A DNA stretch of 64,000 bases from Eubacteriales bacterium (GCA_045544855.1 JAZPZV010000042.1:16399-80398), one strand, 5' to 3'; shown: positions 13,488 to 38,563, counted from the stretch's first letter. The notes: generated by a model not told the origin, from the letters alone. Program-made: numbers and translations.

Positions 13488-14324
13488 TTATACCAATCTT
13501 TGTCCCAAGGCCTTGGGAGTTTCCCCTGCGAAGATGGCGTTTGCGTTCTCCACGTAATCGGCGAAGGTGAGGTCTCTGTCTCTGTGGAGGTGGCGGGGAG
13601 GCTTTTGCCCCAGCTCGTACATCCACACGCCTTCATAACCCACAGCAAGCAAGCCTTGGTACAGCTCCTGCCAGTTGATATCCCCTTCCCCGGGGAGCCA
13701 ATGCTTTTCGTCCTTGAAATCGTAGTCGGAGATATGCACCGTGAGAATGCGGTGTCCCACCGTTTTCAAAAAGTCGCTATGCGTTCCCTGCAACAGGTGG
13801 TTCACGTCAAAGCAGACACGGAGTCTTTCATCGGCGGCAATCAGCTCTGCCAGCTCCTCTGCGGTGTTCCCCAAGCAGGAGCGGGGCAGGTCCTCCACGG
13901 CAATGACGGCACCGTAGCTTTCTGCGATCTCCGCAAGCTTTGCAAGGGACTCCTTGGCGCAGGCAAGCTTTGCCGGGCGTTCCTCCTCTGCAATGGGTTC
14001 TCCGCTGGGGTGTACCACGAAGCGCTTCACACCGATGGCGGTAAAGGCGGCGATCTTCCGGGTAAAGTACGCCAGAACGTTTTTACGCACCTCCTCGTCG
14101 GTGGAGGAAACGTCCGCAAAGGTAAAGGGATAGTAGGGCAGGTGGCAGGACCAAAGCTCCACGCCGTATGCGTCCGCATTGGCCTTCAACTCCTCCGGAT
14201 CCAAGGCATCCAGATAGCCCTTCTCCATAGAGATCTCCACGGCCTCGACGCCCGCCGCAGCAAGGTTTTTAAAGGCTTCCTCATCGGGAGTGAAGCCGCA
14301 GGTAGAAAGTCCGATCTTCAACAT
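13488..14324 (-). CDS. Sugar-phosphate isomerase/epimerase (xylose-isomerase-like TIM barrel)
   Basis: RBS GGAGG 6 nt before ATG 14324 (MLKIGLSTCGF..). Family blocks GVEAVEIS, RFVVHPSG, AVEDLPR, CFDVNH and VHISDYD. Lies 12 nt upstream of the phosphoesterase gene. Confidence 0.8.
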   Translation of the reverse strand: MLKIGLSTCGFTPDEEAFKNLAAAGVEAVEISMEKGYLDALDPEELKANADAYGVELWSCHLPYYPFTFADVSSTDEEVRKNVLAYFTRKIAAFTAIGVKRFVVHPSGEPIAEEERPAKLACAKESLAKLAEIAESYGAVIAVEDLPRSCLGNTAEELAELIAADERLRVCFDVNHLLQGTHSDFLKTVGHRILTVHISDYDFKDEKHWLPGEGDINWQELYQGLLAVGYEGVWMYELGQKPPRHLHRDRDLTFADYVENANAIFAGETPKALGQRLV

Positions 14325-14325
14325 A

Positions 14326-14736
14326 TCAGTCCTCCAGTTTTTCACAAAGATCCTTCAGCCCTTCCGGGTTGAGGATGGGGTTGGCGAAGGGCTTCATGGC
14401 CAAGGCCAACAGTCTCATAGGGTTGTCGTCGGCGGCTACGCGGTTGGAATCCAGCTTGCCGCAGACGGTACAGCGGTGGATCAACGCCCACTCCCCGTTC
14501 TTCCGCACCCAAACGCCGATGGGCTCCATTTTGCCGTGGCAATCGGAGGCGCGGTCACCCGGTTCCTCGTCCAGATGGACGCTGGTGAGGCAGTAGGGGC
14601 AATGGTTACGGTGGTCGCTGCCCGCCCCCTCGGGAACCACCGTCTGCCCGCAATTCTTGCAGGTGAAGGGGTCGATACAGGGGTGGGTGCGGTAAAAATT
14701 CTTGTCGTATTTCTTACGCTTATTCTCGCGGTTCAT
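14326..14736 (-). CDS. RNHCP-domain zinc-ribbon protein
   Basis: CKNCG..DHRNHCPYCLTSVH..CHG..CTVCG. RBS GGAGGTG before ATG 14736. The stop abuts the TIM-barrel start. Confidence 0.75.
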   Translation of the reverse strand: MNRENKRKKYDKNFYRTHPCIDPFTCKNCGQTVVPEGAGSDHRNHCPYCLTSVHLDEEPGDRASDCHGKMEPIGVWVRKNGEWALIHRCTVCGKLDSNRVAADDNPMRLLALAMKPFANPILNPEGLKDLCEKLED

Positions 14737-16440: not shown

Positions 16441-16557
16441 AGTGAAGGCCTCCTTATGTGAATATGATACCTTGTCGGAGGGAATTTGTCAAGAGTTCTT
16501 GCTTTTTTCCTGTTTTTATTGTATGATATAAAGGAAAAAGAAAGGAACGTGATTTTT

Positions 16558-19173
16558 TTGAAAAGATTTTTCTGTCTGATCTTGACCTTAACGCTGTTAC
16601 TCTGCGCCTGCGGAGAAACTGCAGAAAACACCTCCTCCCTTCCCGGTGCGGAAAGCGTGGAGGAATCCTCCAAGGAAGAAAGTGAGGTCAGCAAGGTGTT
16701 TGAAGAGAACGAGCTGATCGGTGAGATCGATGCTTGTCTGACGGGGAAAGCTCCCGACCGTACCATGCTTGCCAAAAATCTGTTTGCCGATGCAAGCTAC
16801 ACCTTTAACACCAACACCAACGAAAGCTATACCGACCCCGATATGAAGAAGCTGAACGACGGCAACAAGCGGGATCTGTTTGACAAATACAGCTGGGTAG
16901 GCTTTACGGGAGGGGTACATCCCTCCGTCACCTTTGATCTGGGTGAGGGGGAGCACGCGTTGGCAGACGTGGAGATCAATATGCTCCGCCAGGTGGCTTA
17001 CGGCATTGAGCTTCCCGACAGCGTGATCCTTTCCGTTTCCGAGGACGGAAAGACCTACGTGAACATCTCTACCCTGAAATCCCCCGCCGACGTGGGGGAA
17101 GGCAACGTGTTCGTTTACCGCTTCGCTCTGCCGAAAACCGTTTCCGCAAGATACGTCCGTGTCACCTTCCGCAGAAAGGCCCAAAACTTCCTGTTCTTGG
17201 ACGAGATCACCGGGTACGAGTACTGCGAAGACGGTACCATTGATCCCTCCACGGGAAACTCCACCGCAGACGTGGAGAAGGTGTTTGATTACTACAAATA
17301 CGATCTGAGTAAGGACGAATACGTGGTGATCAGCCCCTCCGACAGCGATTACAACACCCGTCAGAACCTGGCTCTTTTGGAGTGGGCTAAGGTGGATGCC
17401 ACCCATTTCGATCCTTTTGATCCGTCTCACACCGCCTCCAACACTGACATGGCAGGCCTTGCCAAACTAATCGACGGGAAGAGGGCTTCCAAGGCGACCT
17501 ATTCCGACCCCGCCTTCGCTCATTTCTACCGCGGGTGCGGACGGCACGTAGTGGTGGATCTTGGCAACGAGATGGCCGTTGACTCCGTAGAAGCGGAGTT
17601 CTTGAACGAAGTGAGCGTTGGCGTGGCAGTGCCACCCGCGGTGATGGTCAGCGTCAGCAATGACGGCGAGAATTGGATCACCACCTACGGCGGGTATACC
17701 CTGGAGTACGGCAGCAATGAAAAATGCCTGTACAACGTTGACGCTACCTTCAAGGAGGCCTACCGTGCACGGTATATCCGTGTATCCTTCGTCACCGTGC
17801 CGGAAAACACCGTTTCCTCCAACGTATATCTTTCCGAGATCGAAGTCTGGGGTAAGAAGAACGCGGAAAACGTGCCCGAGGCAAAGGACGATCCCTCCAT
17901 CATCATGGGACGTTACCCCGATATTGGGAGGATCGGCTGTAACAACGTGCTTTTGGCCGCGGTGAACGGCAACGTCAAAGAGAATCCCACCCGCAATCTG
18001 GACGTTGCAGGGGCCTTGAAGCATCAAGCCTATCTGGACGAGCAGGGCAACATTCAGGATACCTTCTACGACTCCGTGCTGTTCTGTCCCTCCAACAGCT
18101 TCCCCTTTACCGGCAACGTGAAGGCCAACGCAGACCTTTACCGTGCCGATATGTTTACCGAAGGCTTTAACCTTTACGCCTGGGATGAGGCGGCAAGACA
18201 AGTACAGGAAGCTATTCCCGGTACGGCAAACGCCACCGTGTGGCTGAACCTGATGTGCCCCGACAACGACGACACCTGCCCCGACGTGGACGGTGACGGC
18301 AAGGCCGAAGATCTTTCCACTCCGGAAGGACGGCTGAGCTATCTGAAGTATCAGGTGGACGAATATCTGAAGGCCTGGGAGGAAGCGGGTTTTGAGCATA
18401 TCACCCTGTTGGGCTTCTATTGGAACAACGAGACCATTCACAGAAACGATCTTGCCCTGGAAAAGGCTGTGATCGGCGGGATCAACGCCTATATTCACGA
18501 AAAAGGCTACAAGAGCTTCTGGTGCCCCTACTACTCCGCTTACGGCATTTGGATGTGGCAGGAGCTGGGCTTTGACGTGGCTTGCCTCCAGCCCAACTAT
18601 ATGTTCTACGTCACCGATCCCACCCGTCTGAAGGCTACTGCGGACATAGCAAAGATCTACGGGATGTGCGTGGAGATCGAGATCGAGGTGGTCAGCGGTG
18701 AAGGCTCCGTGGGCAAATACCGTGAATACCTCCGTGAGGGCTTCGACAGCGGCTATATGCACTCCGTGAAGCTGTACTACGTCAGCGGCACGCCCAGCGC
18801 CATCGCCTCCGCATACGATTCCGAGGATCCTTTGGCACATTCCGTTTACGAGGATACCTACCTGTATGCCAAGGAAAAGCTGGATGAATCGTACAACAAG
18901 GGAGCCTCCGTTTCCATGGACGGCGTGAAGGATCTTACCTTGCAGGTGGTCCACGGGAAAAAGGTGGACTTTGACCTGGCTTTGCCCGAGGGGGTGAAGG
19001 CGAGGATCATGGAAAGCACGGTATACGGCACCTTCCGACTGGATCTTTCCGGAGAGGGTCAATACCGTGCCATGAAGGGCTTCCGCGGGGAGGATCGGAT
19101 TATGCTGGAGATCTACGACCCCGTAGGAAACAGGAAAACCGTCACCATTGCGGTGACGGTTACGGAAGAATAA
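16558..19173 (+). CDS. Surface lipoprotein: discoidin domains + DUF4855-like domain (paralog of 209-3313)
   Basis: Lipobox LTLLLCAC. Segments end FLFLDEITGYE and VYLSEIEVWG. Shared blocks LLGFYWNNE, WCPYYSAYG, QPNYMF and CVEIEIE. Start taken as TTG 16558 (GAAAGGAA about 10 nt upstream). GTG 16549 or TTG 16486 are possible alternatives. Confidence 0.8.
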   Translation: MKRFFCLILTLTLLLCACGETAENTSSLPGAESVEESSKEESEVSKVFEENELIGEIDACLTGKAPDRTMLAKNLFADASYTFNTNTNESYTDPDMKKLNDGNKRDLFDKYSWVGFTGGVHPSVTFDLGEGEHALADVEINMLRQVAYGIELPDSVILSVSEDGKTYVNISTLKSPADVGEGNVFVYRFALPKTVSARYVRVTFRRKAQNFLFLDEITGYEYCEDGTIDPSTGNSTADVEKVFDYYKYDLSKDEYVVISPSDSDYNTRQNLALLEWAKVDATHFDPFDPSHTASNTDMAGLAKLIDGKRASKATYSDPAFAHFYRGCGRHVVVDLGNEMAVDSVEAEFLNEVSVGVAVPPAVMVSVSNDGENWITTYGGYTLEYGSNEKCLYNVDATFKEAYRARYIRVSFVTVPENTVSSNVYLSEIEVWGKKNAENVPEAKDDPSIIMGRYPDIGRIGCNNVLLAAVNGNVKENPTRNLDVAGALKHQAYLDEQGNIQDTFYDSVLFCPSNSFPFTGNVKANADLYRADMFTEGFNLYAWDEAARQVQEAIPGTANATVWLNLMCPDNDDTCPDVDGDGKAEDLSTPEGRLSYLKYQVDEYLKAWEEAGFEHITLLGFYWNNETIHRNDLALEKAVIGGINAYIHEKGYKSFWCPYYSAYGIWMWQELGFDVACLQPNYMFYVTDPTRLKATADIAKIYGMCVEIEIEVVSGEGSVGKYREYLREGFDSGYMHSVKLYYVSGTPSAIASAYDSEDPLAHSVYEDTYLYAKEKLDESYNKGASVSMDGVKDLTLQVVHGKKVDFDLALPEGVKARIMESTVYGTFRLDLSGEGQYRAMKGFRGEDRIMLEIYDPVGNRKTVTIAVTVTEE

Positions 19174-19174
19174 G

Positions 19175-20056
19175 TTATCCGTGTATAGAAACGCCTTGCG
19201 AAAGCAGGGCGTTTTTTCCTTGCAACAGTGTTTCTGCGGAGGGGATCCATTCTGCCTGTGAACAGTCGTCCATCCCCGCCGCCTTTGCCTTGGCACCGCC
19301 GTAAGGGTGATAGGGCAACAGCTCCACACCTTCACAGTTTTGCAGGCTGTGATACAGCTTGGCAACAGCGGTATAGTGGGCACCATTGGCGTTTACACCG
19401 TTTACCAGAATACAGCGTAAACGGGACTTGCCGCCCAGAGAATCCACCATACGGAGATTTTCCAAAATATGCTTGTTGGAGACCCCCGTATACGCCAAAT
19501 GCCTTGCGTCGTCGGTGTCCTTCACGTCCCAAAGGAACAGATCCACCAAGGGGATGGCTTTTTGTAGCAGGGCGGAGGAAACGTACCCACAGGTCTCCAC
19601 GGCTGTGGAAATGCCGTTTTCCTTGCAAAGCTTCAAAAGCTCCAAGACCTCTTCCCCCTGCAAAAAGGGCTCGCCCCCGGAAAGGGTGACCCCGCCTCCG
19701 TTTTGGTAGAAGGGCGCATCCCGTTGGATCACCTCCAAAAGCTGTGCAGGGGTCATGTCCTTACCGCACAGGGACAGCGCCCCGGTGGGACAAAGAGAGG
19801 TGCAACTCCCGCAGGCAACACAGCTTTCCCGCCGCAGGGTATGCATCTCTTCAAAGCTATGTACCCCTTGGGGGCATTCTTCGCAGGCACGGCAGGAAAT
19901 ACATTTTTTCGTTTCAAACAAAAGCTGTGAAGCGGGACTTTGGGTCTCGGGGTTATGGCACCACGGGCAATGCAAGGGACAGCCCTTGAAGAAGATCACC
20001 GTCCGCACCCCGGGCCCGTCGTGCATACAAAACCTTTGGATCTCCGCTACCTTCAT
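19175..20056 (-). CDS. Glycyl-radical enzyme activating protein (radical SAM, with two auxiliary ferredoxin-type clusters)
   Basis: CPLHCPWCHNPE (CxxxCxxC) plus CISCRACEEC and CVACGSCTSLCP. The start overlaps the GRE stop (ATGA). Confidence 0.9.
   Translation of the reverse strand: MKVAEIQRFCMHDGPGVRTVIFFKGCPLHCPWCHNPETQSPASQLLFETKKCISCRACEECPQGVHSFEEMHTLRRESCVACGSCTSLCPTGALSLCGKDMTPAQLLEVIQRDAPFYQNGGGVTLSGGEPFLQGEEVLELLKLCKENGISTAVETCGYVSSALLQKAIPLVDLFLWDVKDTDDARHLAYTGVSNKHILENLRMVDSLGGKSRLRCILVNGVNANGAHYTAVAKLYHSLQNCEGVELLPYHPYGGAKAKAAGMDDCSQAEWIPSAETLLQGKNALLSQGVSIHG
19191..19220 (+). terminator. Terminator for 16558-19173, embedded in the 3' end of the convergent activase gene
   Basis: AACGCCTTGC-GAAA-GCAGGGCGTT followed by TTTTT. 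Confidence 0.6.
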
Positions 20057-22167
20057 GAATGCTCCTCCGTTTGGGCGATGATCATATCCTGCCAGCCCCG
20101 ATCCAGGGTCACGAAACGGGCGTTCCAGCCGGAGACCCGCACAGAAAGGGTGGAATAGTCCTCGGGACGCGCCTGTGCCGCTCTCAGAATGGCCCCATCC
20201 GCCACGTCAAGTTGGAGGAAGAAGCCGCCCAAAGTCATAAAGCCCTGCATCAGCGCGGTGATGGCGGAAAGACCGTCCTCCCCCTTTACGGCGGAGGGCA
20301 ACAGCTTGAGATCCAAGGCCGCTCCGGTGGTCATTTCCGTAAGGTCTATTTTGCAATAAGAGCGGATCACGGCGGTGGCACCCTCCCTGTCCGTCCCGGG
20401 AGTGGGAGAGCAGTTTCCTGCCAGCACCTCCCCCGCCCTTCTGCCGTAGGAGGTGGCCATGCGGTGGGGCGCCCATTCCAACTGTCTGCCGAAGGTGCTG
20501 ATCCCGGGAGGGATACCGTAGCCGCATCTCCCCTCCTGCCCGCGGCAGATGGCGGCAAAGGACTTTGCCAGGGAGACGGCGATCTCATCACATTCGTCGT
20601 TATCGTTGCCGAAATAGGCGTAGCGGCTTTGCACGTACCGCCGTAACACCTCTTCCCCCTCCCAGTCCTTTGCCAGAATGGCAAGAAGCTGCGGCAGGGT
20701 GCATTTTTGCTCTTCAAAAACCAGCGTGCGGATGGCGTACAAGCTGTTCACCGTGTCCGCAAAGCCCCCGAAGTGAGGGGATCGGATGTTGTAAACGGCA
20801 CCGCCGCGGAAATAAGGAAGCCCTGCGGAAATGCAACCGCCCTCAAACAGGGAGATCACCGTAGAGGGTGTCCAATCGCACCAGCGCCATCTGCCGTGGT
20901 CGTCCTTCTCCGGCGTTTCACAGCAATGACGCTCCACGATCCCCGCCACGGCGGTCTCCAGATCCGTCACATACGCTTGATAGAGCTCTTCGTAAGAGGC
21001 AAGATCTGCCCCCGATCCCAAAGTCTGCTGTAATATCTGTAACCCGTCGAAGGGGTCGTACCCGAAATTGGTCTTTCCGGGGATCTGCACCTCCCAACAG
21101 CCATCGTTGGCAAACTTCCAGATTTCCTCCTTTGGATAGCCGTAGGCCAAAAGGCTTTGATAGATCAGCTCCTCGTTGTACACCGCCAGAACGCCGCCCC
21201 CGTAGCGGATGACCTCTGCCATGCGGCGAAGAAGCTTTTGAGGCGTGCCCTTGTGCAACCGCAAGGTGGTGGGGAAATCTCCGATCCCCAATTCCTCGAT
21301 GATATCCAGCACCAGATAGGTGACGTGGTTGGTGATGTCCTTCCCTTCCCCGTCCCTGCCACCGATGACAAGATTCTGATAATGCTGGGCATCGCCGCTA
21401 CCGTAGTTGCCCCCGCAGATCCATTCGCACCCCTTGATGAAGAAGTGGGCAAGAAGCTCCCTTGCTTCCTCTAAGGTAAGTCTGCCCTCTGCCAGGTCGC
21501 GGTCCAAAAAGTCTCCCAAAAGCCAGTCAATCCTGCCAATGCCCGGCCAATTGCCGCAAAGCCGCTGGAAGGCGAAGGCAAACCATATACTCTGCAAGGC
21601 CTCCCGAAAGGTTGCGGGCACGCCGAAGGGCACCTTGGAAAGGACTTGACGGTTCTCTTCGTATCCCGCCTCCCTAAGGGCCTCCAGATATCTGCCGTGC
21701 CAAATGGCAAAGCTATCCAGGCAGGAAAGACAGCTTTGCAAAAAGGGCTCTCTGTCCGTGCCTCTGTAAGCCTCCAGAGACGCCAGAACGTCCAAACGGA
21801 TGCCGCCCATTCCACGTTTTACCACCGTCTCAAAATCCGCGGTAAGGTGGCTGACGGCGTAAAACACCGACTTGCCGCCAAAGGAAGCGGGGACGTGGTG
21901 GTGAATGGCTTCTCCCAGGGTGGCACTGCCGTTGAGCTTTTCCCCCTCGCAGATCCGCAAGGGCGCGTGAAGGCAGATCTCACGGATGGCGAGATCGTAC
22001 TTTTCAAGGTCGTTCAGCTCCGCAAAGCCTTCAATATGATCCAAAGAAACGGCAGGAACTGCCGCCGTCTCCCTGCCGTAACGGCAATGAAGGGAATCGT
22101 ATGCGAACTTGCGGGTAGATTCCGACAGGCGAACAGGGCGTTTGCCGAAGGCAGAATAGAATTCCAT
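20053..22167 (-). CDS. Glycyl-radical enzyme, PFL2/dehydratase-like, substrate unknown (short, 704 aa)
   Basis: C-terminal glycyl loop LSVRVSGWNARFVTL (RVxG). Mid-protein Cys loop NDGCWEVQIPG (Cys-x-Glu). Confidence 0.85.
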   Translation of the reverse strand: MEFYSAFGKRPVRLSESTRKFAYDSLHCRYGRETAAVPAVSLDHIEGFAELNDLEKYDLAIREICLHAPLRICEGEKLNGSATLGEAIHHHVPASFGGKSVFYAVSHLTADFETVVKRGMGGIRLDVLASLEAYRGTDREPFLQSCLSCLDSFAIWHGRYLEALREAGYEENRQVLSKVPFGVPATFREALQSIWFAFAFQRLCGNWPGIGRIDWLLGDFLDRDLAEGRLTLEEARELLAHFFIKGCEWICGGNYGSGDAQHYQNLVIGGRDGEGKDITNHVTYLVLDIIEELGIGDFPTTLRLHKGTPQKLLRRMAEVIRYGGGVLAVYNEELIYQSLLAYGYPKEEIWKFANDGCWEVQIPGKTNFGYDPFDGLQILQQTLGSGADLASYEELYQAYVTDLETAVAGIVERHCCETPEKDDHGRWRWCDWTPSTVISLFEGGCISAGLPYFRGGAVYNIRSPHFGGFADTVNSLYAIRTLVFEEQKCTLPQLLAILAKDWEGEEVLRRYVQSRYAYFGNDNDECDEIAVSLAKSFAAICRGQEGRCGYGIPPGISTFGRQLEWAPHRMATSYGRRAGEVLAGNCSPTPGTDREGATAVIRSYCKIDLTEMTTGAALDLKLLPSAVKGEDGLSAITALMQGFMTLGGFFLQLDVADGAILRAAQARPEDYSTLSVRVSGWNARFVTLDRGWQDMIIAQTEEHS

Positions 22168-22230
22168 AAAAGAACCTCAAAATAAGCAAAGGGCCATCCC
22201 GCAGGACAGCCCTCTTTACAGACGATAAAA

Positions 22231-23295
22231 TTAACCCAGGATAACTTCCTTGCCGGACTCGGAGGAATCGTACATAGCCTGCATCATCTCTGCCGTCTTG
22301 ATAACGGTGTCGATGTGAGAAGGAAGCTTCTCGCCGGTCTTGATGCAGTTGATAAAGCCGTCGATCTCTTTCTGGAACATGGGCTCATCCTTGTACTTGG
22401 GCTTGAAGTTCACCAAGCTGCCGCAGGAGGTGGTGTAAACGGTGAAGTCGCCGCCGTAGTTCAGTCTTGCGCCGCCCTTGGTGCCCAGGAAGTCGATATA
22501 GCTCTCGTTAATGCCCAGGTTCTGTGCCCAAGCGCCGTTGAAGGTGATTGTGGGGCCGTCGGTGCGAACGAAGCCGGTTACAAAGTCGTCAACGTCGTAG
22601 GTACCGTTCAGATCCTTGGTATCCTCAGCCCACATGCCTTCGTATACGTAGTTGGGCATATCCACGCCCAGCTTGCTGTATGCCTTTGCGGAAACGGAGG
22701 TAGCCTTGGGGTCGCCGGTGCAGTACATAACGATATCCAGATAGTGAACGCCCCAGTCGATGAGAACGCCGCCGCCGGAGATCTCCTTGGTGGTGAACGC
22801 ACCGCCGAGACCGGGGATGGAACGCTGAGAACGGAAGCAAACGTAAACGTGGTAGATCTCGCCCAGGTCGCCGGACTGAATGATCTCACGGAGACGGTTG
22901 ACAGCGGAGTTGAAGCGGTTGACCACGCCGATGTTCAGAACCTTGCCGGACTCGTGCTGAGCCTGCTGCATTGCCAGAGCCTCGGAATAAACGCGGGCCG
23001 CGGGCTTTTCGCAAAGAACGTTCTTGCCTGCCTTCAGAGCGTCGATGGTGATGAAAGCGTGCATCTTGTTGGGAGTACAAACGGAAACTGCCTCGATCTC
23101 GGGATCGTTCAGAACAACGTGGTAATCCTCAACTGCGGTGCCGCAACCGTACTTCTCTACGCACTTCTCTGCCTTGTGGAGCAGGATGTCGCAGAAATAC
23201 TTGATCTCAACCTCCTCGTTCTTCATATAAGCGGGGATGTGAGCACTGTTGGCGATCGTACCGCAACCGATGATCGCAATCTTCATTTTTGCCAT
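22231..23295 (-). CDS. Gfo/Idh/MocA-family NAD(P)-dependent oxidoreductase
   Basis: RBS GGAGG before ATG 23295. MKIAIIGCGTIANSAHIPAY Rossmann start and the CEKPAA motif. First gene of the oxidoreductase-GRE-activase operon. Confidence 0.85.
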   Translation of the reverse strand: MAKMKIAIIGCGTIANSAHIPAYMKNEEVEIKYFCDILLHKAEKCVEKYGCGTAVEDYHVVLNDPEIEAVSVCTPNKMHAFITIDALKAGKNVLCEKPAARVYSEALAMQQAQHESGKVLNIGVVNRFNSAVNRLREIIQSGDLGEIYHVYVCFRSQRSIPGLGGAFTTKEISGGGVLIDWGVHYLDIVMYCTGDPKATSVSAKAYSKLGVDMPNYVYEGMWAEDTKDLNGTYDVDDFVTGFVRTDGPTITFNGAWAQNLGINESYIDFLGTKGGARLNYGGDFTVYTTSCGSLVNFKPKYKDEPMFQKEIDGFINCIKTGEKLPSHIDTVIKTAEMMQAMYDSSESGKEVILG

Positions 23296-23356
23296 AGTGG
23301 GTAACCTCCGAAAATAATTGAATTTCATGATTTTTATTGGTTTTCACCTTATTTGC

Positions 23357-23385: not shown

Positions 23386-23417
23386 GAGATTTTGAAAAAA
23401 ATTTCAAAAAGCTCTTG
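23383..23417. promoter_or_regulatory. Imperfect 35-bp palindrome spanning both divergent -35 boxes (candidate operator)
   Basis: CAAGAGATTTTGAAA-AAAA-TTTCAAAAAGCTCTTG. Confidence 0.4.
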
Positions 23418-23443
23418 ACAAATTTACCATGCTCTGCTATAAT
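23415..23443 (+). promoter_or_regulatory. Consensus sigma-A promoter
   Basis: TTGACA-17 nt-TATAAT. Confidence 0.7.
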
Positions 23444-23454
23444 CCCTAACATCA

Positions 23455-23650
23455 AAAGCATGGAAGTGGAACAAGCGTCCGTTTTCCCTTTTCAGAGAGC
23501 CGTCGGTTGGTGCGAGGCGGTATGGGGTCGGAATGCGAACTCACCACAGAGCTTTCCTTTCGAACGGGGACGTTTGTCCTTCAGTAGGGAGTGAACGGGT
23601 TTCTCACCGTGATCAGGAGAACCGATTGCTGGATCGGTGTTGCATTTTTT
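23455..23650 (+). promoter_or_regulatory. T-box leader; Stem I at 23455-23555 with a Leu (CUC) specifier; expression platform atypical
   Basis: Hand fold: AAAGC/GCUUU base helix, AUGGAA/AGA K-turn-like, GUGG/CCAC helix, specifier loop GAA-CUC-A (23537-23543), AG bay AGAGAG (23494-23499), distal loop GGUUGGUGCGA closed by GCCGUC/GGCGGU. AGUA at 23583. Hairpin ACCGAU..AUCGGU (23621-23638) carries UGGA (23630-23633), with a U6 run at 23645-23650. The canonical GGGUGGNACCGCG box was not found. Confidence 0.6.
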
Positions 23651-23772
23651 GCAATTTTCATAGGTTACGTGTTTTCCCTCGGTAGCTCTGTCGGTGTATC
23701 TGTGCCCGATAGGGTTATTTTTGTTTTCTTTGCTTTTTGCTTCACATTTCTCCGGGAAAGGAACAGCCAACC

Positions 23773-26304
23773 ATGAAAACAGCATTTTCCACCCTCGCTT
23801 GCCCCGGCTTTGATTTTAAAGACATTACCACCATGGCCGCCGACCTGGGTTTTGACGGCATTGAGGTGCGTGGTCTGGGCATCGATCTCATCGACCGTCA
23901 TTCCAAGCCCTTTGCGGCGGAAAACATCCCCGCCACTGCGGCGAAGCTGCGTTCTTTGCGTTTGAAGATCTCCTGCTTCTCCTCCGGCGTGGTACTCAGC
24001 GACGGGACGAGAAGAGAGCAGAACCTGGAAGAGGCCAAGGAATACATCCGTGCCGCAAAGGCGCTGGGTACCAAATATATCCGCGTGCTGGGTGAAGCCA
24101 CCCCCGCTCCCGAAAGGGAGATCGACGACGAAGAAGTGTTCGCACAGCTTTCCGCCATTCTTCCCTTTGCCGAGGAGGCAGGAGTCACCGTGTTGGTGGA
24201 GACCAACGGTGCTTACTGCGACACTGCCCGCCTTGCTTCCGTATTAAACCGCTGTCACAGCGAGTCCGTGGGCGCTTTGTGGGACATTCACCATCCCTAC
24301 CGCCATCTGGGTGAATCCCCCGAGAAGACGGTACAAAATCTGGGCAGATACATCCGCTACGTCCACGTGAAGGATTCTGTGAAGGAAGAGGGCAAGGTCT
24401 CCTACCGTATGATGGGAGACGGCGATATGCCTCTGGACGACATTATGAACGCTCTGCGTTCCATCAATTTCGAGGGTTACCTCTCTTTGGAGTGGGTGAA
24501 GACCTGGATGCCCGAGCTGTTCGATGCGGGCATCGTGTTCCCTCAGTATATGCACTTCATGTCCCGCTATCTGGGCAAGACCCCCACGGGTCACGCTCTC
24601 CAGGTGGACAAGCGGGGTGCAGGTCAGTATCCCTGGCCCAAGGAGACCTTGATCGATCTCACCTTCCCCCAGCTTCTTGACCACATTTGTGATTGCTTCC
24701 CCGATCAGTACGCCTTCCGCTACACCACCCACGATTACACCCGCACCTATCCCCAGTTCCGCGAGGACGTGGACAGATTTGCCCGTGCTTTGATGGCCTT
24801 GGGAGTGCGCAAGGGCGACCACGTGGCGGTGTGGGCCACCAACGTGCCCGCATGGTATCTCACCTTCTGGGCGGCTACCAAGATCGGCGCTGTTTTGGTG
24901 ACGGTGAACACCGCTTACAAGATCTACGAGGCGGAGTATTTGCTCCGTCAGTCCGACACCCACACCTTGGTGATGGTGGACGGCTACAAGGGCACGGACT
25001 ACAAGGAGATCGTGAACAAGCTGGTTCCCGAGCTTGCCACCCACGAACCGGGCAAGCCCTTGTACAGCCAACGTCTCCCCTTCTTGCGCAACGTGATCAC
25101 CTGCGAGTCCTCCATGCCCGGTGCCCTCACCATGGAGCAGGCCATGGAGTACGCAGACAAGACTCCCGTGGAGGAGCTGTACCGCCGTGCCTCCCGCATT
25201 GACAAGCACGACGTTTGCAATATGCAGTACACCTCCGGCACCACCGGATTCCCCAAGGGCGTTATGCTCACCCACTACAACGTGATCAACAACGGCAAGG
25301 CCATCGGCGACTGTATGGATCTTTCCACCGCGGACCGCATGATGATCCAGGTGCCTATGTTCCATTGCTTCGGCATGGTATTGGCCATGACCGCCTCCGT
25401 GACCCACGGGGTGACCATGTCCCCCATTCCCGCCTTCTCTCCCAGAAGAGGCTTGGATTGCATCAACCGCGAAAAGATCACCTGCTTCCACGGCGTGCCC
25501 ACCATGTTCATCGCCATGCTGGGGCACGAGGATTTTGACAAAACCGACTTCTCCCATATGCGTACCGGCATCATGGCGGGCTCACCCTGCCCTGTGAAGG
25601 TGATGGAAGAGGTCATCAATAAGATGCACATGAGCGAGATCTGCATCACCTACGGGCAGACGGAGGCTTCTCCTGCCACCACCATGTCCAAGACCACGGA
25701 TTCCATTGAGACACGTGTGAACACGGTGGGAAGCGCCATCTTCGGTGTGGAGTGCAAGATCATCGATCCCGAAACGGGAGAAGAAGTACCCGACGGCGTG
25801 GACGGTGAGTTCTGCGCCCGTGGCTACAACATCATGAAGGGGTACTACAAGATGCCCCAGGCAACTGCCGCTGCCATTGACAGCGAGGGTTGGCTTCACT
25901 CCGGGGATCTGCTTCGCAAGCTGCCCGACGGCAACTTCAAGGTGACGGGGCGTATCAAAGATATGATCATCCGCGGGGGTGAGAATCTTTACCCCAAGGA
26001 GATCGAGGACTTTATCTACACCCATCCCAAGGTGAGCGACGTGCAGGTCATCGGCGTGCCCGACAAGCAGTACGGCGAGGAGGCCATGGCTTGCATCATC
26101 ATCAAGCCCGGCGAGACACTCACCGAGGAGGAGATCCGCACCTACTGCATGGAGAACATGGCCAAGCACAAGGTGCCGAAGTATTTTGATTTCGTGGATT
26201 CCTTCCCCATGAATGCGGCGGGAAAGATCTTGAAGTACAAGATGCGGGAGGCGGCTGTGGAGAAGCTTGGCTTACAGGCCGCCGCCAAGATCGAGACGGC
26301 TTAA
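23773..26304 (+). CDS. Fusion protein: xylose-isomerase-like TIM barrel (N-terminal, ~290 aa) + ANL-superfamily acyl/aryl-CoA (AMP-forming) ligase (C-terminal, ~550 aa)
   Basis: N-terminal blocks GFDGIEVRG, YIRVLGE, VLVETN, WDIHH, VHVKD and LSLEW. C-terminal blocks YTSGTTGFPKGVMLTH, GEFCARGYNIMKGYY, WLHSGD and GRIKDMIIRGGENLYPKEIE. One uninterrupted frame. Confidence 0.85.
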   Translation: MKTAFSTLACPGFDFKDITTMAADLGFDGIEVRGLGIDLIDRHSKPFAAENIPATAAKLRSLRLKISCFSSGVVLSDGTRREQNLEEAKEYIRAAKALGTKYIRVLGEATPAPEREIDDEEVFAQLSAILPFAEEAGVTVLVETNGAYCDTARLASVLNRCHSESVGALWDIHHPYRHLGESPEKTVQNLGRYIRYVHVKDSVKEEGKVSYRMMGDGDMPLDDIMNALRSINFEGYLSLEWVKTWMPELFDAGIVFPQYMHFMSRYLGKTPTGHALQVDKRGAGQYPWPKETLIDLTFPQLLDHICDCFPDQYAFRYTTHDYTRTYPQFREDVDRFARALMALGVRKGDHVAVWATNVPAWYLTFWAATKIGAVLVTVNTAYKIYEAEYLLRQSDTHTLVMVDGYKGTDYKEIVNKLVPELATHEPGKPLYSQRLPFLRNVITCESSMPGALTMEQAMEYADKTPVEELYRRASRIDKHDVCNMQYTSGTTGFPKGVMLTHYNVINNGKAIGDCMDLSTADRMMIQVPMFHCFGMVLAMTASVTHGVTMSPIPAFSPRRGLDCINREKITCFHGVPTMFIAMLGHEDFDKTDFSHMRTGIMAGSPCPVKVMEEVINKMHMSEICITYGQTEASPATTMSKTTDSIETRVNTVGSAIFGVECKIIDPETGEEVPDGVDGEFCARGYNIMKGYYKMPQATAAAIDSEGWLHSGDLLRKLPDGNFKVTGRIKDMIIRGGENLYPKEIEDFIYTHPKVSDVQVIGVPDKQYGEEAMACIIIKPGETLTEEEIRTYCMENMAKHKVPKYFDFVDSFPMNAAGKILKYKMREAAVEKLGLQAAAKIETA

Positions 26305-26357: not shown

Positions 26358-26500
26358 CCCTCAAAACCCAATGCCGAAACGCAAATTGCGTTTCGGGAGT
26401 CATGAAGATATTCTTTTTTCTCCCGAAAACGACAGTTTTCGGCAATACGGTTTTCGGGGTTTTTAAGGGGTGCTTTTTCCCAAAAGCACCCCTTAAATCA
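26358..26500. repeat. Intergenic repeat family, copy 3 (two cores in inverted orientation)
   Basis: AATGCCGAAACGCAAATTGCGTTTCGG (26370-26396), CCGAAAACGACAGTTTTCGGCAAT (26423-26446), and the TTAAGGGGTGC..GCACCCCTTAA palindrome. Confidence 0.7.
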
Positions 26501-26513
26501 TTTATAAGCCCCT

Positions 26514-27866
26514 TCATACACGCTTTTTCTCCCAAACGCGCATCTTGTAGAAGGCGAAGGCCATAAGGCAGGCCACGGTCCAGCCAACCGCCCAGGCGGT
26601 GGGAATGGCGTAGATCCCCATACCGACGGCGGCAAGGAGATAGCACAGTGCCACGCGGATGATGAGGTCGGCAATGGTGCTGGCGGAGAAATACTTCATA
26701 GCGCCGTACCCGCGAAGAATGCCGTCGATGGCGATCTTCACGGCGATGACGGCGTAGAAGGGAGCAACGCACCGCAGGAAGGTGCTTCCCGCTTGCAAGG
26801 CCTCCTCGGTGATGGCGGGATCGTCGGTATTCAAGAACAGCTTTACGAAGAAGGGCGCAAAGATAAAGAAAGCGACGGCGATGGGCAGGATGAGGAGGTA
26901 CAGCATCTTCACCCCTGCGGAGAAGCCCTGTTTCACGCGGGGCTCCTGCTTGGCACCCAGGTTCTGGGCGGTGTAAGCGGCAATGGCGGCGGACACGGTG
27001 ACGAAGCAGGCCGTGGCGAAGCCGTTCACCTTCAAGGCGGTGGAGAAGCCCGCAATGGTCGCTTCCGAACCAAGACCGTCAATGACACGCTGAATGAAGA
27101 AATTCCCCACGGCGATGAAAGACTGCTGTAAAACCGTGGGAATAGAAAGAGAGACCAGCTCTTTTAAGATGGGGGTCTGTACCCAAGGGGCGTCGCGCCC
27201 CTCCAAACGGTTCACACGGCGCAACAGCACGGCGAACAGCAGGCAGGCGGAAAGCACCTGGGCAATGAGGGTCGCCCATGCCGCACCCTGCACGTCCCAG
27301 CCCAACACGGCTACGAACAGCAGATCCAAGGCAACGTTCCCAAAGGAAGAGCCTGCCAGAAAGTACAAGGGGGTGGCAGAATCTCCCAATGCGGTGCAGA
27401 TGCCCGTGGAGATGTTGTAAAGGAACACGAACAGCAGAGAGGCCGTGTAGATGTAAAGGTATTCCACCGCAGTTTCCATGGCGGCGGCGGGGGTATCGAT
27501 GAGAGTCAGCAAAGGTCTGCAGAAGACAAAGCCCAGCAGGGTGAGGACCACTGCGATGAGGGAAGCTCCCAGCCAAGCGGTTCGCATGGCGGTGTGAAGA
27601 TCTCTGTACTGCTTGCCGCCGAAAAAGCGGGCGATGAGCACGGAGCAGCCCGTGTTAAAGCCCACCGCTACGGCGGTGTAGATGGCTGTCACGGAAGAAG
27701 CCGCCGCTACGGCGGCAACCGCCGTTTCGGGAGTGGCGGTAAAGTTCCCCACCACGAAAAGATCCACCAAAACGTACAGCTGTTGCAGCAGCACGCTGAC
27801 GATCATGGGCAAAGAGAAGCGCAACAGAACGGCTGAAGGCTTCCCTTTCGTAAGGTCAACGGTCAT
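26514..27866 (-). CDS. MATE-family efflux transporter
   Basis: 450 aa with about 12 hydrophobic helices and a typical MATE N-terminus (GKPSAVLLRFSLPMIVSVLLQQLY). The start overlaps the LysR stop (ATGA). Confidence 0.85.
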   Translation of the reverse strand: MTVDLTKGKPSAVLLRFSLPMIVSVLLQQLYVLVDLFVVGNFTATPETAVAAVAAASSVTAIYTAVAVGFNTGCSVLIARFFGGKQYRDLHTAMRTAWLGASLIAVVLTLLGFVFCRPLLTLIDTPAAAMETAVEYLYIYTASLLFVFLYNISTGICTALGDSATPLYFLAGSSFGNVALDLLFVAVLGWDVQGAAWATLIAQVLSACLLFAVLLRRVNRLEGRDAPWVQTPILKELVSLSIPTVLQQSFIAVGNFFIQRVIDGLGSEATIAGFSTALKVNGFATACFVTVSAAIAAYTAQNLGAKQEPRVKQGFSAGVKMLYLLILPIAVAFFIFAPFFVKLFLNTDDPAITEEALQAGSTFLRCVAPFYAVIAVKIAIDGILRGYGAMKYFSASTIADLIIRVALCYLLAAVGMGIYAIPTAWAVGWTVACLMAFAFYKMRVWEKKRV

Positions 27867-28765
27867 TTCAGCACGCTTTCTCTTTGGTTGGGATCGAAGG
27901 ACATGATCCTCTTTGCGATGGGGTTGGTGTTATCGGAAAGCATCATCAGGTTATACTGCACGATCTTGTTGCCGGGGATGGGGAATTTTACAAACTCCTC
28001 CCCTGCGATCTCGGGCATAAAGCCGGGAACGATGGCAACGCCGTGACGGGAACGGACCATCAAAAGCTGAGCGCCAATGCTGTTGGTCTGGGAGATCTTT
28101 TCCGGCACGAAGCCGAAGGCATCCCACAGAAGGCGGCGCAGCATCTCCATGGAGGAGGGGCCGGAGTTCTCGCAGTTGGTAATGAGGTATTCCCCTTTCA
28201 ACAGCTCCACGGGAGAGCCGCCTGCGTACTTCTTGGCCAGATCGCAGTGAGCCACCAGATAGTTGGGGGATTCAAACAGAGTGCGGGAGCAGTACTCCTC
28301 CTTGAGCAGCGCCTGCTCGCAGATGCTGTCCGCCACGATCACGTCCAGCTCCCCTGTTTTCAGCTTGGCGGTAAGCTCCCCGTAGGGATACTGGAAGAAA
28401 TCCACCTTCACCGCAGGGAACTGCTTTAAGAAGGCACCGAAAAACTCCTCGGTATTGCAATACTCGTACACCCCGAAGCCAACCTTCACGTAGCCGCTGT
28501 ATTCCGCATCGATGGCGCGGACACGCTTTTCCGTATCCTCGTAATACTTCCGCAAAAACTTCACACGCTCGTAGTAGAACGCCCCCGCCTCGGTGAGAGA
28601 AACAGAGTGGGAGCTGCGCTTGAACAGACGGATGCCCAGCTTCTCCTCCAATGCGGCAATGTACTGGCTGATGGCGGTCTGGGAAACGGAATGCTTCGCC
28701 GCCGCCTGGGTAAAATTCAAACACTCGGCAAGAGTGAGAAAATAATCGATTTTCTTGTTGATCAT
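27863..28765 (-). CDS. LysR-family transcriptional regulator
   Basis: N-terminal wHTH YFLTLAECLNFTQAAAKHSVSQTAISQYIAALEEKLG. 300 aa. Confidence 0.9.
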   Translation of the reverse strand: MINKKIDYFLTLAECLNFTQAAAKHSVSQTAISQYIAALEEKLGIRLFKRSSHSVSLTEAGAFYYERVKFLRKYYEDTEKRVRAIDAEYSGYVKVGFGVYEYCNTEEFFGAFLKQFPAVKVDFFQYPYGELTAKLKTGELDVIVADSICEQALLKEEYCSRTLFESPNYLVAHCDLAKKYAGGSPVELLKGEYLITNCENSGPSSMEMLRRLLWDAFGFVPEKISQTNSIGAQLLMVRSRHGVAIVPGFMPEIAGEEFVKFPIPGNKIVQYNLMMLSDNTNPIAKRIMSFDPNQRESVLK

Positions 28766-28847: not shown

Positions 28848-29061
28848 GACCGTTTTGGGCGACCTGCTGTAAAGCAGGTCGCCCAACGAAATTTGCCCAT
28901 TGGGGCAAGTGAAATCGCTTCGCGGTGAAATATTTGCTTCGCAAATGTGAAATGTTCGCTTCGCGAACACGGGCAAATTTCATTTCACATCGAACGAAGT
29001 GAGATATTTCACAATGTGCGTTAGCACATTATTTCACGTTTTGCCCGGCAAAACATTTCAC
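28848..29061. repeat. 12-bp-stem hairpin followed by an array of mini-hairpins punctuated by GTGAAAT (x3) and then ATTTCAC (x4)
   Basis: GGGCGACCTGCT-GTAA-AGCAGGTCGCCC. GTGAAAT at 28909, 28925 and 28947. ATTTCAC at 28982, 29006, 29031 and 29055. Small palindromes lie between them (ATTTGC-TTC-GCAAAT, GTTCGC-TTC-GCGAAC, AATGTGC-GTTA-GCACATT, GTTTTGCC-CG-GGCAAAAC). Confidence 0.7.
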
Positions 29062-35042: not shown

Positions 35043-36593
35043 TTAGTCGTTCAGCTCGTAAGCTTCTACGTACTCGTCGATCTGATCCTGGATCGCGCCC
35101 TCAATACCCTGCAGGTGAGAAGTCACTGCATTGGAGTTGGAGCCCATCAGGGTGGTGAACATGGAGTTGATGCCGCCGAAGTTATAAAGAATACCCAGGT
35201 CGTAAACTACGTTGTTGAAGATGTAGTTGTCCAGCATATCCTCGGAGTCGTTATCCTTGGCGTCTCTGCTCTTCAGGGTGACGTCGTAGTATGCGGGAGT
35301 GACATGGTTCTTACCGCCTGCTGCCATGAGCTCGATCATGTAAGCGGAGAACTCAGCGTCTTCAACGTTGGTGGGGATACAGATACCGTATGCGTAGAAG
35401 ATGTTTGCGGAGGTGTAGTAGGTATCCTGCTCCTCGGAAGCCTTGGGAGAAGGAATGATGCCCATGTGACCGGATACGTTGTAGTTACGCAGCTTCTTAA
35501 CTGCGGAGAATGCGGAGGGGTAGAACAGGGTACGCTCGTTACCGAAAGCACCCATTGCGCCTTCCCAAACGTTGGGTTCGGGCCAGGTGGGATCCAGCTT
35601 CTGGGTGTTGGCGAACCAAGTGCTGTCCTGGAAGGTTTCCAGAACCTTTTCTGCGTAACGGACGGAAGCCTCGGAGCCGAATTCCAGGTAAGGAATATCG
35701 TTCTGATCCTTTGCGATGAGCTTGTTACCGGAAGCGATGAAGAAGCCTGCGATACCGTTGGTACCGATCATGCCCCAATGATCCTCAAAGTTCATGCCGG
35801 GGATATCATCGGATTCGTAGGTCACTTCTCTGCCCATCTCAACCATCAGATCCAGAGTCCACTTGCCTTCGCGAACGATGTCGTACAGAGAGCCGTACCT
35901 TTCCGCAAAGACTTCTTCATAAATGTTCTTGTTGAACAGGATGGCGGAAGAAACGATCTTCTGCATGATGGAGATATCGCCGGTGGTGAAGTACAGCTTG
36001 CCTGCGATGGACAGGTTTTCGTTAGCGTCCTGATCCCACCAGGGAGCATCCAGATGGATGTAATCCGCAAAATCGTTCAGGTCGTACAGCATATTCTGCT
36101 GTGCCAAAGAAGCCGCCTGACCCATGAAGGGCATAGCCGCATCGTAAGCAGCGGTGCCTGCGGTAGAGTCCTGGGTAACGGTAGAGGCAACGTTGTTTAC
36201 CTGATAAGCGATGATCTCAACGCCGTATTTCTCGGTGATCAGGTCGTTACGGGCGCCAACGGCCTTGCTCAGAACGTCGTCGGTGGTGTCGTACAGATCG
36301 GGTGCGATCTCCTCGGAGAAGTAAGTACCGTCACCCTCCTTGCTGGTAACGCAAACGGAGAAGGTGTTCTTGTTGAAGTTAAACTCGGGCATGCCCAGGT
36401 TTTCAACGGTGTACTGCTTGTTTTCATCCAGATAAATGGAGTTGCCGCCTTCATCGGGGCCGGAGGTGGTACCGGAAGTGGTGCCGCCGGAGGTTTCGGG
36501 AGTGCTGGTGGTGCCGCCGTTACCGCCGCAAGCTACCAGCAGAGGGCAGAGCAACAGCAGACCCAGCATAAGAGCAAAAAGTCTTTTCGTCAT
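35043..36593 (-). CDS. Large extracellular solute-binding lipoprotein (ABC-type sugar SBP family); no permease genes adjacent
   Basis: Lipobox LLVACGGNGG (start ATG 36593, RBS AAAGGA). YDAAMPFMGQAASLAQQNMLYDLN and APWWDQ blocks. Paralogous to 36748-38535. Confidence 0.75.
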   Translation of the reverse strand: MTKRLFALMLGLLLLCPLLVACGGNGGTTSTPETSGGTTSGTTSGPDEGGNSIYLDENKQYTVENLGMPEFNFNKNTFSVCVTSKEGDGTYFSEEIAPDLYDTTDDVLSKAVGARNDLITEKYGVEIIAYQVNNVASTVTQDSTAGTAAYDAAMPFMGQAASLAQQNMLYDLNDFADYIHLDAPWWDQDANENLSIAGKLYFTTGDISIMQKIVSSAILFNKNIYEEVFAERYGSLYDIVREGKWTLDLMVEMGREVTYESDDIPGMNFEDHWGMIGTNGIAGFFIASGNKLIAKDQNDIPYLEFGSEASVRYAEKVLETFQDSTWFANTQKLDPTWPEPNVWEGAMGAFGNERTLFYPSAFSAVKKLRNYNVSGHMGIIPSPKASEEQDTYYTSANIFYAYGICIPTNVEDAEFSAYMIELMAAGGKNHVTPAYYDVTLKSRDAKDNDSEDMLDNYIFNNVVYDLGILYNFGGINSMFTTLMGSNSNAVTSHLQGIEGAIQDQIDEYVEAYELND

Positions 36594-36747
36594 GATAGAA
36601 TCCTTTCTGACATTTATAGTTATCCTTATCATATCACTTTCCATGTTTTCTGTCAATCTACGAATAAGCCAAAATACCGCTCTGATTTTTGACAAAAATC
36701 ACAAAGGAAAACGCACCCCAAAATACGGGATGCGTTTTGTGAAAAGC

Positions 36748-38535: not shown

Positions 38536-38563
38536 GAAAAATCCCTCTTCTCTGCTTAAAGGT

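Follow-up and report, generated by a model that had tools for sequence, protein, structure and literature searches.

A leucine T-box leader lacking its discriminator half precedes a TIM-barrel::acyl-CoA ligase fusion gene in a Eubacteriales bacterium

A 64,000-nucleotide (nt) stretch from a Eubacteriales bacterium (GCA_045544855.1 JAZPZV010000042.1:16399-80398), called the window here and numbered from its first letter, carries a leader of ~323 nt (23450-23772) in front of one gene for an 843-amino-acid (aa) fusion of a xylose-isomerase-like TIM barrel and an acyl/aryl-CoA ligase of the ANL type. The leader and the fusion gene lie on the + strand. The leader descends, with near certainty, from a leucine T-box; its decoding half is complete and its discriminator half is absent. 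The explanation that we favor, at a probability of roughly 0.55 for the whole, is that the leader is an evolutionary derivative of the CUC-specified transcriptional T-box of Oscillospiraceae and other Clostridia, in which the discriminator half (Stem III, UGGU bulge, and antiterminator) has given way to a fast-evolving linker and a strong terminator (23681-23739). tRNA-Leu(GAG) would still be bound through anticodon-specifier pairing and the elbow platform, gene expression would be set by read-through of the terminator, and the product would be an enzyme of leucine supply.

The decoding half of the leader

The decoding half (23454-23638) comprises Stem I, Stem II, the Stem IIA/B pseudoknot, and a hairpin, H1. 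A permissive Rfam search of the leader aligned the T-box family RF00230 to positions 23452-23627 with 66.3 bits (E 2.3e-14), and nhmmer found the leader homologous to those of 38 other loci, which indicates that it shares ancestry with the genuine T-boxes of orthologous loci. The RF00230 alignment spans Stem I, Stem II, and Stem IIA/B, with deletions where the model has Stem III, the T-box, and the antiterminator. Because this 3' discriminator is missing, the score lies below the RF00230 gathering score of 93 bits, and a whole-window Rfam search at gathering thresholds reported no T-box. The T-box proposed in an earlier reading of this DNA (hereafter the sequence-only reading) is therefore recovered as a significant match that stays under the family threshold.

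Stem I (23454-23553) is supported by the RF00230 alignment, by a hidden Markov model (HMM) alignment to the 38 other leaders, and by compensatory changes among variant leaders. The RF00230 alignment places in it a K-turn region with a GA motif (23457-69 with 23548-53), an AG bay reading AGAGAG (23494-99), a distal stem-loop (23500-22) with the loop GUUGGUGCGAG at 23506-16, and a specifier loop reading GAA-CUC-A (23537-43). The specifier codon is CUC (Leu, 23540-23542), an aligned column across leaders, and is followed by the conserved purine A23543. Both the complete Stem I and the leucine specifier loop had been folded by hand in the sequence-only reading, and both hold up: the former by alignment and nhmmer homology, the latter by a specifier column that is CUC or CUG in all 57 readable leaders. 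CUC is the specifier in 74% of the Leu T-boxes in TBDB (PMC7778990).

Stem II (23554-23594) follows, with an AGUA S-turn-type motif at 23583-86; it rests on the RF00230 alignment and on covarying pairs in the variants (columns 111-118 with 156-163). The Stem IIA/B pseudoknot and F-box (23596-23621) are likewise supported by the RF00230 alignment and by covariation among variants. The Stem IIA helix pairs CGG (23596-98) with CCG (23607-09), and the loop UUCUC (23601-05) is, as read from the sequence, complementary to GAGAA (23617-21). This complementarity covaries in relatives, reading UCCC/GGGA in locus L005 and CCCU/AGGG in L010. The F-box region is CCGUGAUCA (23607-15). The window leader therefore has a K-turn, a specifier loop of codon plus purine, an AG bay and distal loop forming a platform for the tRNA elbow, Stem II, Stem IIA/B, and the F-box; it lacks the antiterminator T-box sequence with its UGGN bulge.

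Leaders of orthologous loci

Leaders of 98 loci were sorted by a Stem I HMM and a T-box motif ([ACGT]GGNACC / UGGNACC); 80 of at least 597 fusion loci were retrieved. A canonical T-box is present at 40 of the 98 loci, a variant (Stem I without UGGNACC) at 15 including the window, and no T-box at 43, counts that carry an ascertainment bias since metagenome loci were chosen by leader motif. Canonical leaders from six loci (L005, L010, L013, L082, L100 from Yeguia hominis, and L101 from Ligaoa zhengdingensis) score 102-109 bits, above the RF00230 gathering score, and all seven variants tested fall under it. L087, which is canonical by motif and has a long insertion in H1, also falls under it.

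The specifier column in 58 Stem I-bearing leaders reads CUC in 54 and CUG in three, with one alignment truncated, and the loop bases that flank the specifier vary freely. In the same 58 leaders the bulge is UGGU in 42, CGGU in one, and absent in 15. The UGGN bulge of a T-box pairs with the 3' NCCA end of the tRNA, and the discriminator base of tRNA-Leu is A73, which by the established T-box rule matches UGGU. As a positive control, the leader at L086 has the same Stem IIA/B sequence, a CUC specifier, and 127 bits, and the gene that follows it is the 2-isopropylmalate synthase gene leuA (NF002086, 732 bits against a cutoff of 532). The leader classes, the specifier and bulge columns, and this control make the leucine assignment and the association of the T-box with the fusion gene solid. 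The claim that a Leu T-box precedes this gene, an atypical target, is accordingly sustained by the ortholog survey, with complete canonical leaders and a uniform leucine specifier. The stronger wording, that the T-box controls the gene, is only partly upheld, in that the association is conserved and the window's own copy has neither UGGN bulge nor antiterminator and scores below the gathering threshold. No other known RNA was found in the T-box-less orthologs.

Several single loci are of interest in their own right. An otherwise canonical leader at L040 (~2673-3003) reads AGAGCGGUACCACGG, with CGGU in place of UGGU, which removes the pair with tRNA A76; the change might mark an early stage in losing the discriminator, or be an error in the assembly. 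At L083 (4441-5003) and L084, a 74%-identical ortholog has lost the whole T-box leader, although its promoter is still that of the sister with a canonical T-box, L082/L085 (CTTTACAA.TCGAATTATATATGGTATAATCAA); by all appearances the leader was cleanly deleted not long ago and expression became constitutive. At L094 (reverse strand), a variant leader of the L007 type with a CUC specifier and terminator is followed at position 704 by a 224-aa open reading frame (ORF; MNAEKRIELV...) and not by the fusion; on this 1.7-kb contig the ORF has no NCBIfam match, and either the leader was recruited to another gene or a gene was inserted. In four T-box-less loci, represented in L047, a gene for a second AMP-binding protein precedes the fusion by 32-56 nt in the same orientation, apparently as an operon; in L047 its product is ~730 aa and, by eye, joins a helix-turn-helix, a cupin, and an ANL domain.

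The 3' half: hairpins, linker, and terminator

Downstream of the pseudoknot, H1 (ACCGAU-UGCUGG-AUCGGU, 23621-23638) is shared with the canonical relatives L086 and L005, and alignment with canonical relatives gives its loop the pattern UGNN(G/U)G. To judge from that alignment, H1 belongs to this T-box subfamily as a conserved accessory hairpin and does not serve as an acceptor-binding site. A small hairpin, H2 (UUGCA-UUUUU-UGCAA, 23640-23654), occupies the Stem III position of the canonical relatives and is not preserved even in L003, whose protein is 94% identical to that of the window. A linker (23655-23680) stands in place of the T-box sequence; the absence of a canonical GGGUGGNACCGCG box, remarked in the sequence-only reading, was confirmed by the RF00230 alignment and a motif scan. 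The leader ends in an intrinsic terminator (23681-23739), a 17-bp hairpin of ~-19 kcal/mol at 23681-23719 (5' strand GGUAGCUCUGUCGG at 23681-94, 3' strand CCGAUAGGGUUAUU at 23706-19) directly followed by the U-run UUUGUUUUCUUUGCUUUUUG at 23720-39. Compensatory changes occur inside the terminator between the window and L001, and the hairpin and U-run are kept in every variant lineage despite sequence drift at the neutral rate. The linker segment AUAGGUUAC (23660-68) could pair weakly with the terminator 5' strand.

The sequence-only reading had placed the expression platform elsewhere, in a UGGA on the shoulder of the H1 loop followed by six U. On this model the leader would be a working charge-sensing T-box with its acceptor site at UGGA (23630-33) and termination at the U6. 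The H1 loop does contain UGGA in the window and in L003, L092, and L089, and 23621-38 scored as terminator-like in a terminator scan. However, H1 with UGGA also occurs in the canonical L086, which has a UGGU bulge of its own, and H1 coexists with such a bulge in L005 as well. The sequence is not conserved: L081 (85% protein identity) and L088 have UUGA, and L095 has CGGA. Its final A mismatches A73 of tRNA-Leu, and the bulge of all 42 canonical relatives is UGGU. The six U (23645-50) form the loop of H2, which is not conserved in L003, and a far stronger terminator lies downstream. This platform is rejected on these grounds, and a charge-sensing switch built on it is scarcely credible. The variant leaders at L089/L098 carry a tandem pair of hairpins with U-runs, GCCGGCUCUGCCC...GGGGGGCGGC followed by GUUUUCGG, and CCGGUCUUUACC...GGUAAAGACCGG followed by U8.

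Selection on the two halves of variant leaders

A neighbor-joining tree of the proteins has canonical leaders scattered throughout and variants in several deep lineages, with proteins 68%-72% identical to that of the window; the tree is crude, and its picture is biased by the motif-selected metagenome loci. The scatter of canonical leaders suggests that the T-box was probably present in the common ancestor and has been lost many times. Among ten variant leaders alone, compensatory double substitutions occur in 17 of the 33 predicted pairs of Stems I, II, and IIA. Between the window and L003, identity is 59% at fourfold-degenerate coding sites, 93% in the decoding half, and 64% in the 3' platform. 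Between the window and L081 the corresponding values are 36% (saturated), 78%, and 33%. By these comparisons, the decoding half of the variants is under strong purifying and compensatory selection, and the 3' platform drifts neutrally, constrained only to stay a terminator. Selection on the decoding half argues that the variants still bind tRNA-Leu, and we consider such binding likely for the window leader.

The same data bear on whether the leader is a non-regulatory relic, that is, a constitutive and leaky attenuator in which a strong promoter and partial read-through fix the level of expression and tRNA is irrelevant. A relic would explain why no variant has an antiterminator or acceptor-binding site, why the 3' platform changes at the neutral rate, and why the leader could be wholly lost elsewhere, at L083/L084 with the same promoter and at 43 of the 98 loci. 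A useless Stem I, however, would be expected to decay like the 3' platform. Instead, the decoding half of the window and L081 has stayed 78% identical while fourfold sites have saturated at 36%, compensatory changes have accumulated in it among variants, and the CUC codon, AG bay, and distal loop are kept in lineages whose proteins are only 68%-72% identical. We therefore regard a pure relic as unlikely.

Regulation in the variant leaders

In the favored derivative T-box, charge sensing has probably been lost or much weakened, since nothing in the leader can pair with the NCCA end of the tRNA. The most likely state would be binding of tRNA-Leu without discrimination of its charge. Whether such binding modulates termination is an even bet, and any coupling between the two would necessarily be non-canonical. 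The terminator architecture is conserved in the variants, with no antiterminator that would make the two structures mutually exclusive.

The sole recurrent candidate for a coupling is a variant-specific helix, P-x, which would involve the linker just 5' of the terminator and compete with the Stem IIA/B pseudoknot. In the window, P-x would form between GGUUACGUG in the linker (23663-71) and CACCGUGAUC in the F-box and the 3' strand of Stem IIA (23605-14). Its pairings differ by lineage, with CGUGAUC opposite GGUUACG or GAUUAUG, and GUUAUCA opposite UGAUAAU. P-x is enriched in the variants: shuffling gave P values of 0.02-0.11 in seven of nine (Fisher's P ~0.006 over six lineages, exploratory), and none of 32 canonical leaders reached P < 0.05. 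P-x could report tRNA occupancy because it would compete with the Stem IIA/B pseudoknot.

Other candidates were rejected. No cryptic UGGN elsewhere in the variants is conserved, and nascent-transcript folds and duplex searches for a conserved antiterminator partner of the terminator 5' strand gave lineage-specific partners. The terminator 5' strand often contains GCUCUG, which is complementary either to the AG bay or to the base of Stem I (in the window to ACAGAGCU, with a shuffle P < 0.002). This complementarity to Stem I reaches significance in the window group and in L099 and is absent in L088, L094, and L095; more likely, GCUCUG is left over from the canonical helix-A1 3' strand GUCUCU. 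Leader-peptide attenuation, through a GUG-started ORF with a CUC codon that overlaps the terminator, fails where a stop breaks the frame in L001 and where the Leu codon is absent in L002. A hairpin that would sequester the Shine-Dalgarno sequence for translational control is not conserved in L003.

The TIM-barrel::acyl-CoA ligase enzyme

Intact fusions of ~843 aa were identified in at least 597 species genomes, most of them from Oscillospiraceae and other Clostridia, and thousands of relatives of ~843 aa exist. This breadth excludes a sequencing artefact and, together with the Pfam matches, supports the earlier description of the ORF as one fused gene with all ANL core motifs. PF01261 matches aa 22-242 with 115 bits (cutoff 31.1), and PF00501 (313 bits) and PF13193 (66 bits) match aa 304-818. 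The TIM-barrel domain (aa 1-272, 23773-24588) was delimited by PF01261, a domain model, and invariant columns, and the ANL domain (aa 290-843 plus stop, 24640-26304) by PF00501, PF13193, and its motifs: YTSGTTGFPKG (aa 486-496), YGQTE (aa 627-631), GRIKDMIIRGGEN (aa 726-738), and K818 in PMNAAGKILK. The core motifs (A3 P-loop, A5, A8 hinge, and A10 Lys) are invariant in 41 orthologs. The protein is highly conserved, with a mean column identity of 82%. The best NCBIfam match of the whole protein, the fatty-acid CoA ligase PRK12583, reaches 691 bits against a cutoff of 832, and the ANL domain is under every NCBIfam equivalog cutoff.

In the barrel, E143, D171, H174, H198, D201, and E240 are invariant in orthologs and are, by analogy, candidate metal ligands. 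A domain-only model (predicted local distance difference test, pLDDT, 89) matches IolI, ketose 3-epimerases, AsbF, UlaE, and Art22 with template modeling (TM) scores of 0.73-0.76 and sequence identity no higher than 20%. Among NCBIfam families FrlC comes nearest, with 48 bits where the cutoff is 305; IolO is likewise far under its cutoff. A full-length AlphaFold2 model (pLDDT 75) is too uncertain for conclusions about the domain interface. No neighborhood is conserved, the largest neighbor family occurring in six of ~85 loci, and the fusion gene is always monocistronic across ortholog loci.

By T-box logic, induction by uncharged tRNA-Leu implies that the enzyme should serve leucine supply, and we consider this role, which the sequence-only reading had soundly proposed, probable. 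No Ile or Val specifier occurs, which favors a precursor specific to leucine. In the simplest proposal, the ligase domain would activate isovalerate to isovaleryl-CoA in an ATP-dependent step, and reductive carboxylation to 2-ketoisocaproate would raise leucine supply, with a metal-site TIM barrel contributing a second activity beside the ligase. Incorporation of isovalerate into leucine is well established in ruminococci and relatives, reportedly from work by Allison and Bryant in the 1960s. All top ANL matches are fatty or short-acyl-CoA ligases, and the fusion family is present in Ruminococcus metagenome-assembled genomes. The incorporation is also mentioned in PMC7356843. A literature search found no paper that links a T-box to this fusion family and nothing relevant on isovalerate ligases or yngI. 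We put isovalerate forward tentatively as the substrate; a barrel that is obligatorily fused and apparently catalytic finds no explanation in this proposal.

The enzyme might instead supply leucine by a route that bypasses isovalerate. In one version, an FrlC- or IolO-like barrel would isomerize or epimerize a sugar-amino-acid conjugate or a compound with a keto or hydroxy group. In another, the ANL domain would activate some other acid related to leucine, for example 2-hydroxyisocaproate, isocaproate, or ketoisocaproate, or would yield an amide or ester in place of a CoA thioester. Several properties fit this alternative: the invariant metal-site residues, by which the barrel is probably catalytic; its nearest named families, fructoselysine 3-epimerase and 5-keto-L-gluconate epimerase; the position of the ANL domain under every equivalog cutoff; and an obligatory fusion in at least 597 species, which suggests two coupled chemical steps that activation of isovalerate does not need. 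The nature of the top ANL matches, the ruminococcal trait, and the occurrence of the family in Ruminococcus speak against it, and we hold it to be somewhat unlikely.

Weight of the evidence

Several results count against the explanation given at the outset, a derivative leucine T-box that binds tRNA-Leu and sets read-through into a leucine-supply gene. Neither an antiterminator nor a UGGN was found in any variant (the window and 14 others), so that any route from tRNA binding to the terminator would be hypothetical. Only for the window and L002 is a local antiterminator formed from the linker plausible, and there it is weak, at -8 against -19 kcal/mol for the terminator. P-x is weak by its individual P values (0.02-0.11), is absent in L089 and L095, and has an unexplained link to the terminator. 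The deletion of the whole leader in L083/L084 and the lack of a T-box at 43 of the 98 loci imply that regulation by the leader is dispensable, and the survey carries the ascertainment bias of its motif-selected metagenome loci. On the side of the enzyme, NCBIfam and structure searches returned only generic matches, with no close characterized homolog and no substrate, and no operon partner (a 2-oxoacid:ferredoxin oxidoreductase or an aminotransferase) was found at ortholog loci. The families closest to the barrel act as sugar or ketoacid epimerases, an activity for which the isovalerate model has no need.

A more specific version combines a hitherto undescribed class of discriminator-less T-box, which would act on the terminator by tRNA occupancy alone, for example by stabilizing the pseudoknot against P-x, with a gene that would be the missing enzyme from isovalerate or branched acids to leucine in gut and rumen Oscillospirales and a TIM barrel that would catalyze a coupled second step. 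As a whole it is improbable.

Relation to known systems

Canonical long T-boxes (RF00230; for example that of Bacillus subtilis tyrS, and the Leu T-boxes of leuS or of leuA/ilv-leu operons) share with the window leader Stem I, Stem II, Stem IIA/B with the F-box, and a downstream terminator, and most Leu T-boxes share its CUC specifier. Unlike them, the window leader has no Stem III, UGGN bulge, or antiterminator (66 bits against 93), and its gene is not a synthetase, a classical biosynthesis gene, or a transporter. Judged by these features, the canonical relatives are ordinary T-boxes on an unusual target, and the window leader is a T-box without a discriminator. T-boxes of the glyQS type (no Stem II) and the translational ileS T-boxes of actinobacteria (truncated Stem I, sequestrator) have lost or swapped modules with function kept. 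Both retain the discriminator with its UGGN bulge; the window presents the reverse, with the discriminator gone and the full decoding module kept.

Medium- and short-chain acyl-CoA ligases of the ANL type (PRK12583; PDB 8weu/8wev, FadD13 3r44, and MatB 4fuq) have the same PF00501 and PF13193 domains, motifs, and catalytic Lys. The window enzyme differs in scoring under the equivalog cutoffs, in its fused N-terminal TIM barrel, and in its Leu T-box leader. PF01261 barrels (ketose 3-epimerases, FrlC, IolO/IolI, UlaE, and AsbF) have the same fold and metal-site-like residues of the E/D/H/E type. The window barrel differs in its low identity to solved structures, in its 48-bit score to the nearest named family, and in its fusion to a CoA ligase.

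A T-box specifier is a built-in functional label, and a leucine specifier across dozens of species ties this family to leucine homeostasis, where thousands of members in databases are labeled only as AMP-binding protein. An old rumen and gut question, which enzymes build leucine from branched-chain volatile fatty acids in ruminococci and relatives, is thereby made testable, and Yeguia hominis and Ligaoa zhengdingensis are cultured carriers of the canonical switch. Selection on the decoding half after loss of the charge-sensing half runs contrary to the view of the discriminator as indispensable. It implies either a new coupling mechanism or Stem I modules with a function independent of antitermination.

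Genomic context and other features of the window

The leader is preceded by a perfect sigma-70 promoter (23415-23443, 12 of 12 matches) with TTGACA at 23415-20, a 17-nt spacer, and TATAAT at 23438-43, and with an extended -10 TG at 23435-36. Transcription probably starts near 23450. A ribosome-binding site, GAAAGGAA (23756-23763), was located by inspection and ends 9 nt before the ATG at 23773, a start placement consistent with orthologs that begin at the same M-K-x-A-F-S-T-L. The ORF (23773-26304, stop codon included) is a single gene, followed by a terminator with a 16-bp stem (26462-26497). By Pfam annotation, a Gfo/Idh/MocA oxidoreductase gene lies upstream and a convergent MATE transporter gene downstream, both on the opposite strand, and the fusion gene is therefore monocistronic in the window. 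The consensus promoter, the leader of about 320 nt, and the fusion as the only downstream gene, all described in the sequence-only reading, agree with this layout.

The divergent upstream genes (19175-23328, - strand) encode a radical-SAM activase (19175-20056), a PFL2/HypD-like glycyl-radical enzyme (20053-22167), and the Gfo/Idh/MocA oxidoreductase (22231-23328). Four variant-leader loci (the window, L007, and two more) share the divergent Gfo/Idh/MocA gene, a sign that their leaders have a common ancestor. The window annotation contains no branched-chain metabolism gene.

Farther away, a stand-alone xylose-isomerase-like TIM barrel (PF01261, 127 bits) is encoded at 13488-14345 (- strand). 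It was rejected as a close paralog of the fused domain at 26% identity. A purple-acid-phosphatase-like protein (10653-13475) adjoins it, and its region is rich in DUF4855/F5-F8-type-C surface proteins (209-3313 and 16486-19173). A single ORF of 4117 aa occupies 42828-55181 (- strand), and its neighbors include several large ORFs without a Pfam match (35043-38604). Gut-1, an orphan small RNA motif from gut metagenomes (RF01706), matches 28884-28958 (+ strand) with 65 bits against a gathering score of 50 and adjoins the upstream side of a divergent LysR-family gene (27863-28765, - strand).

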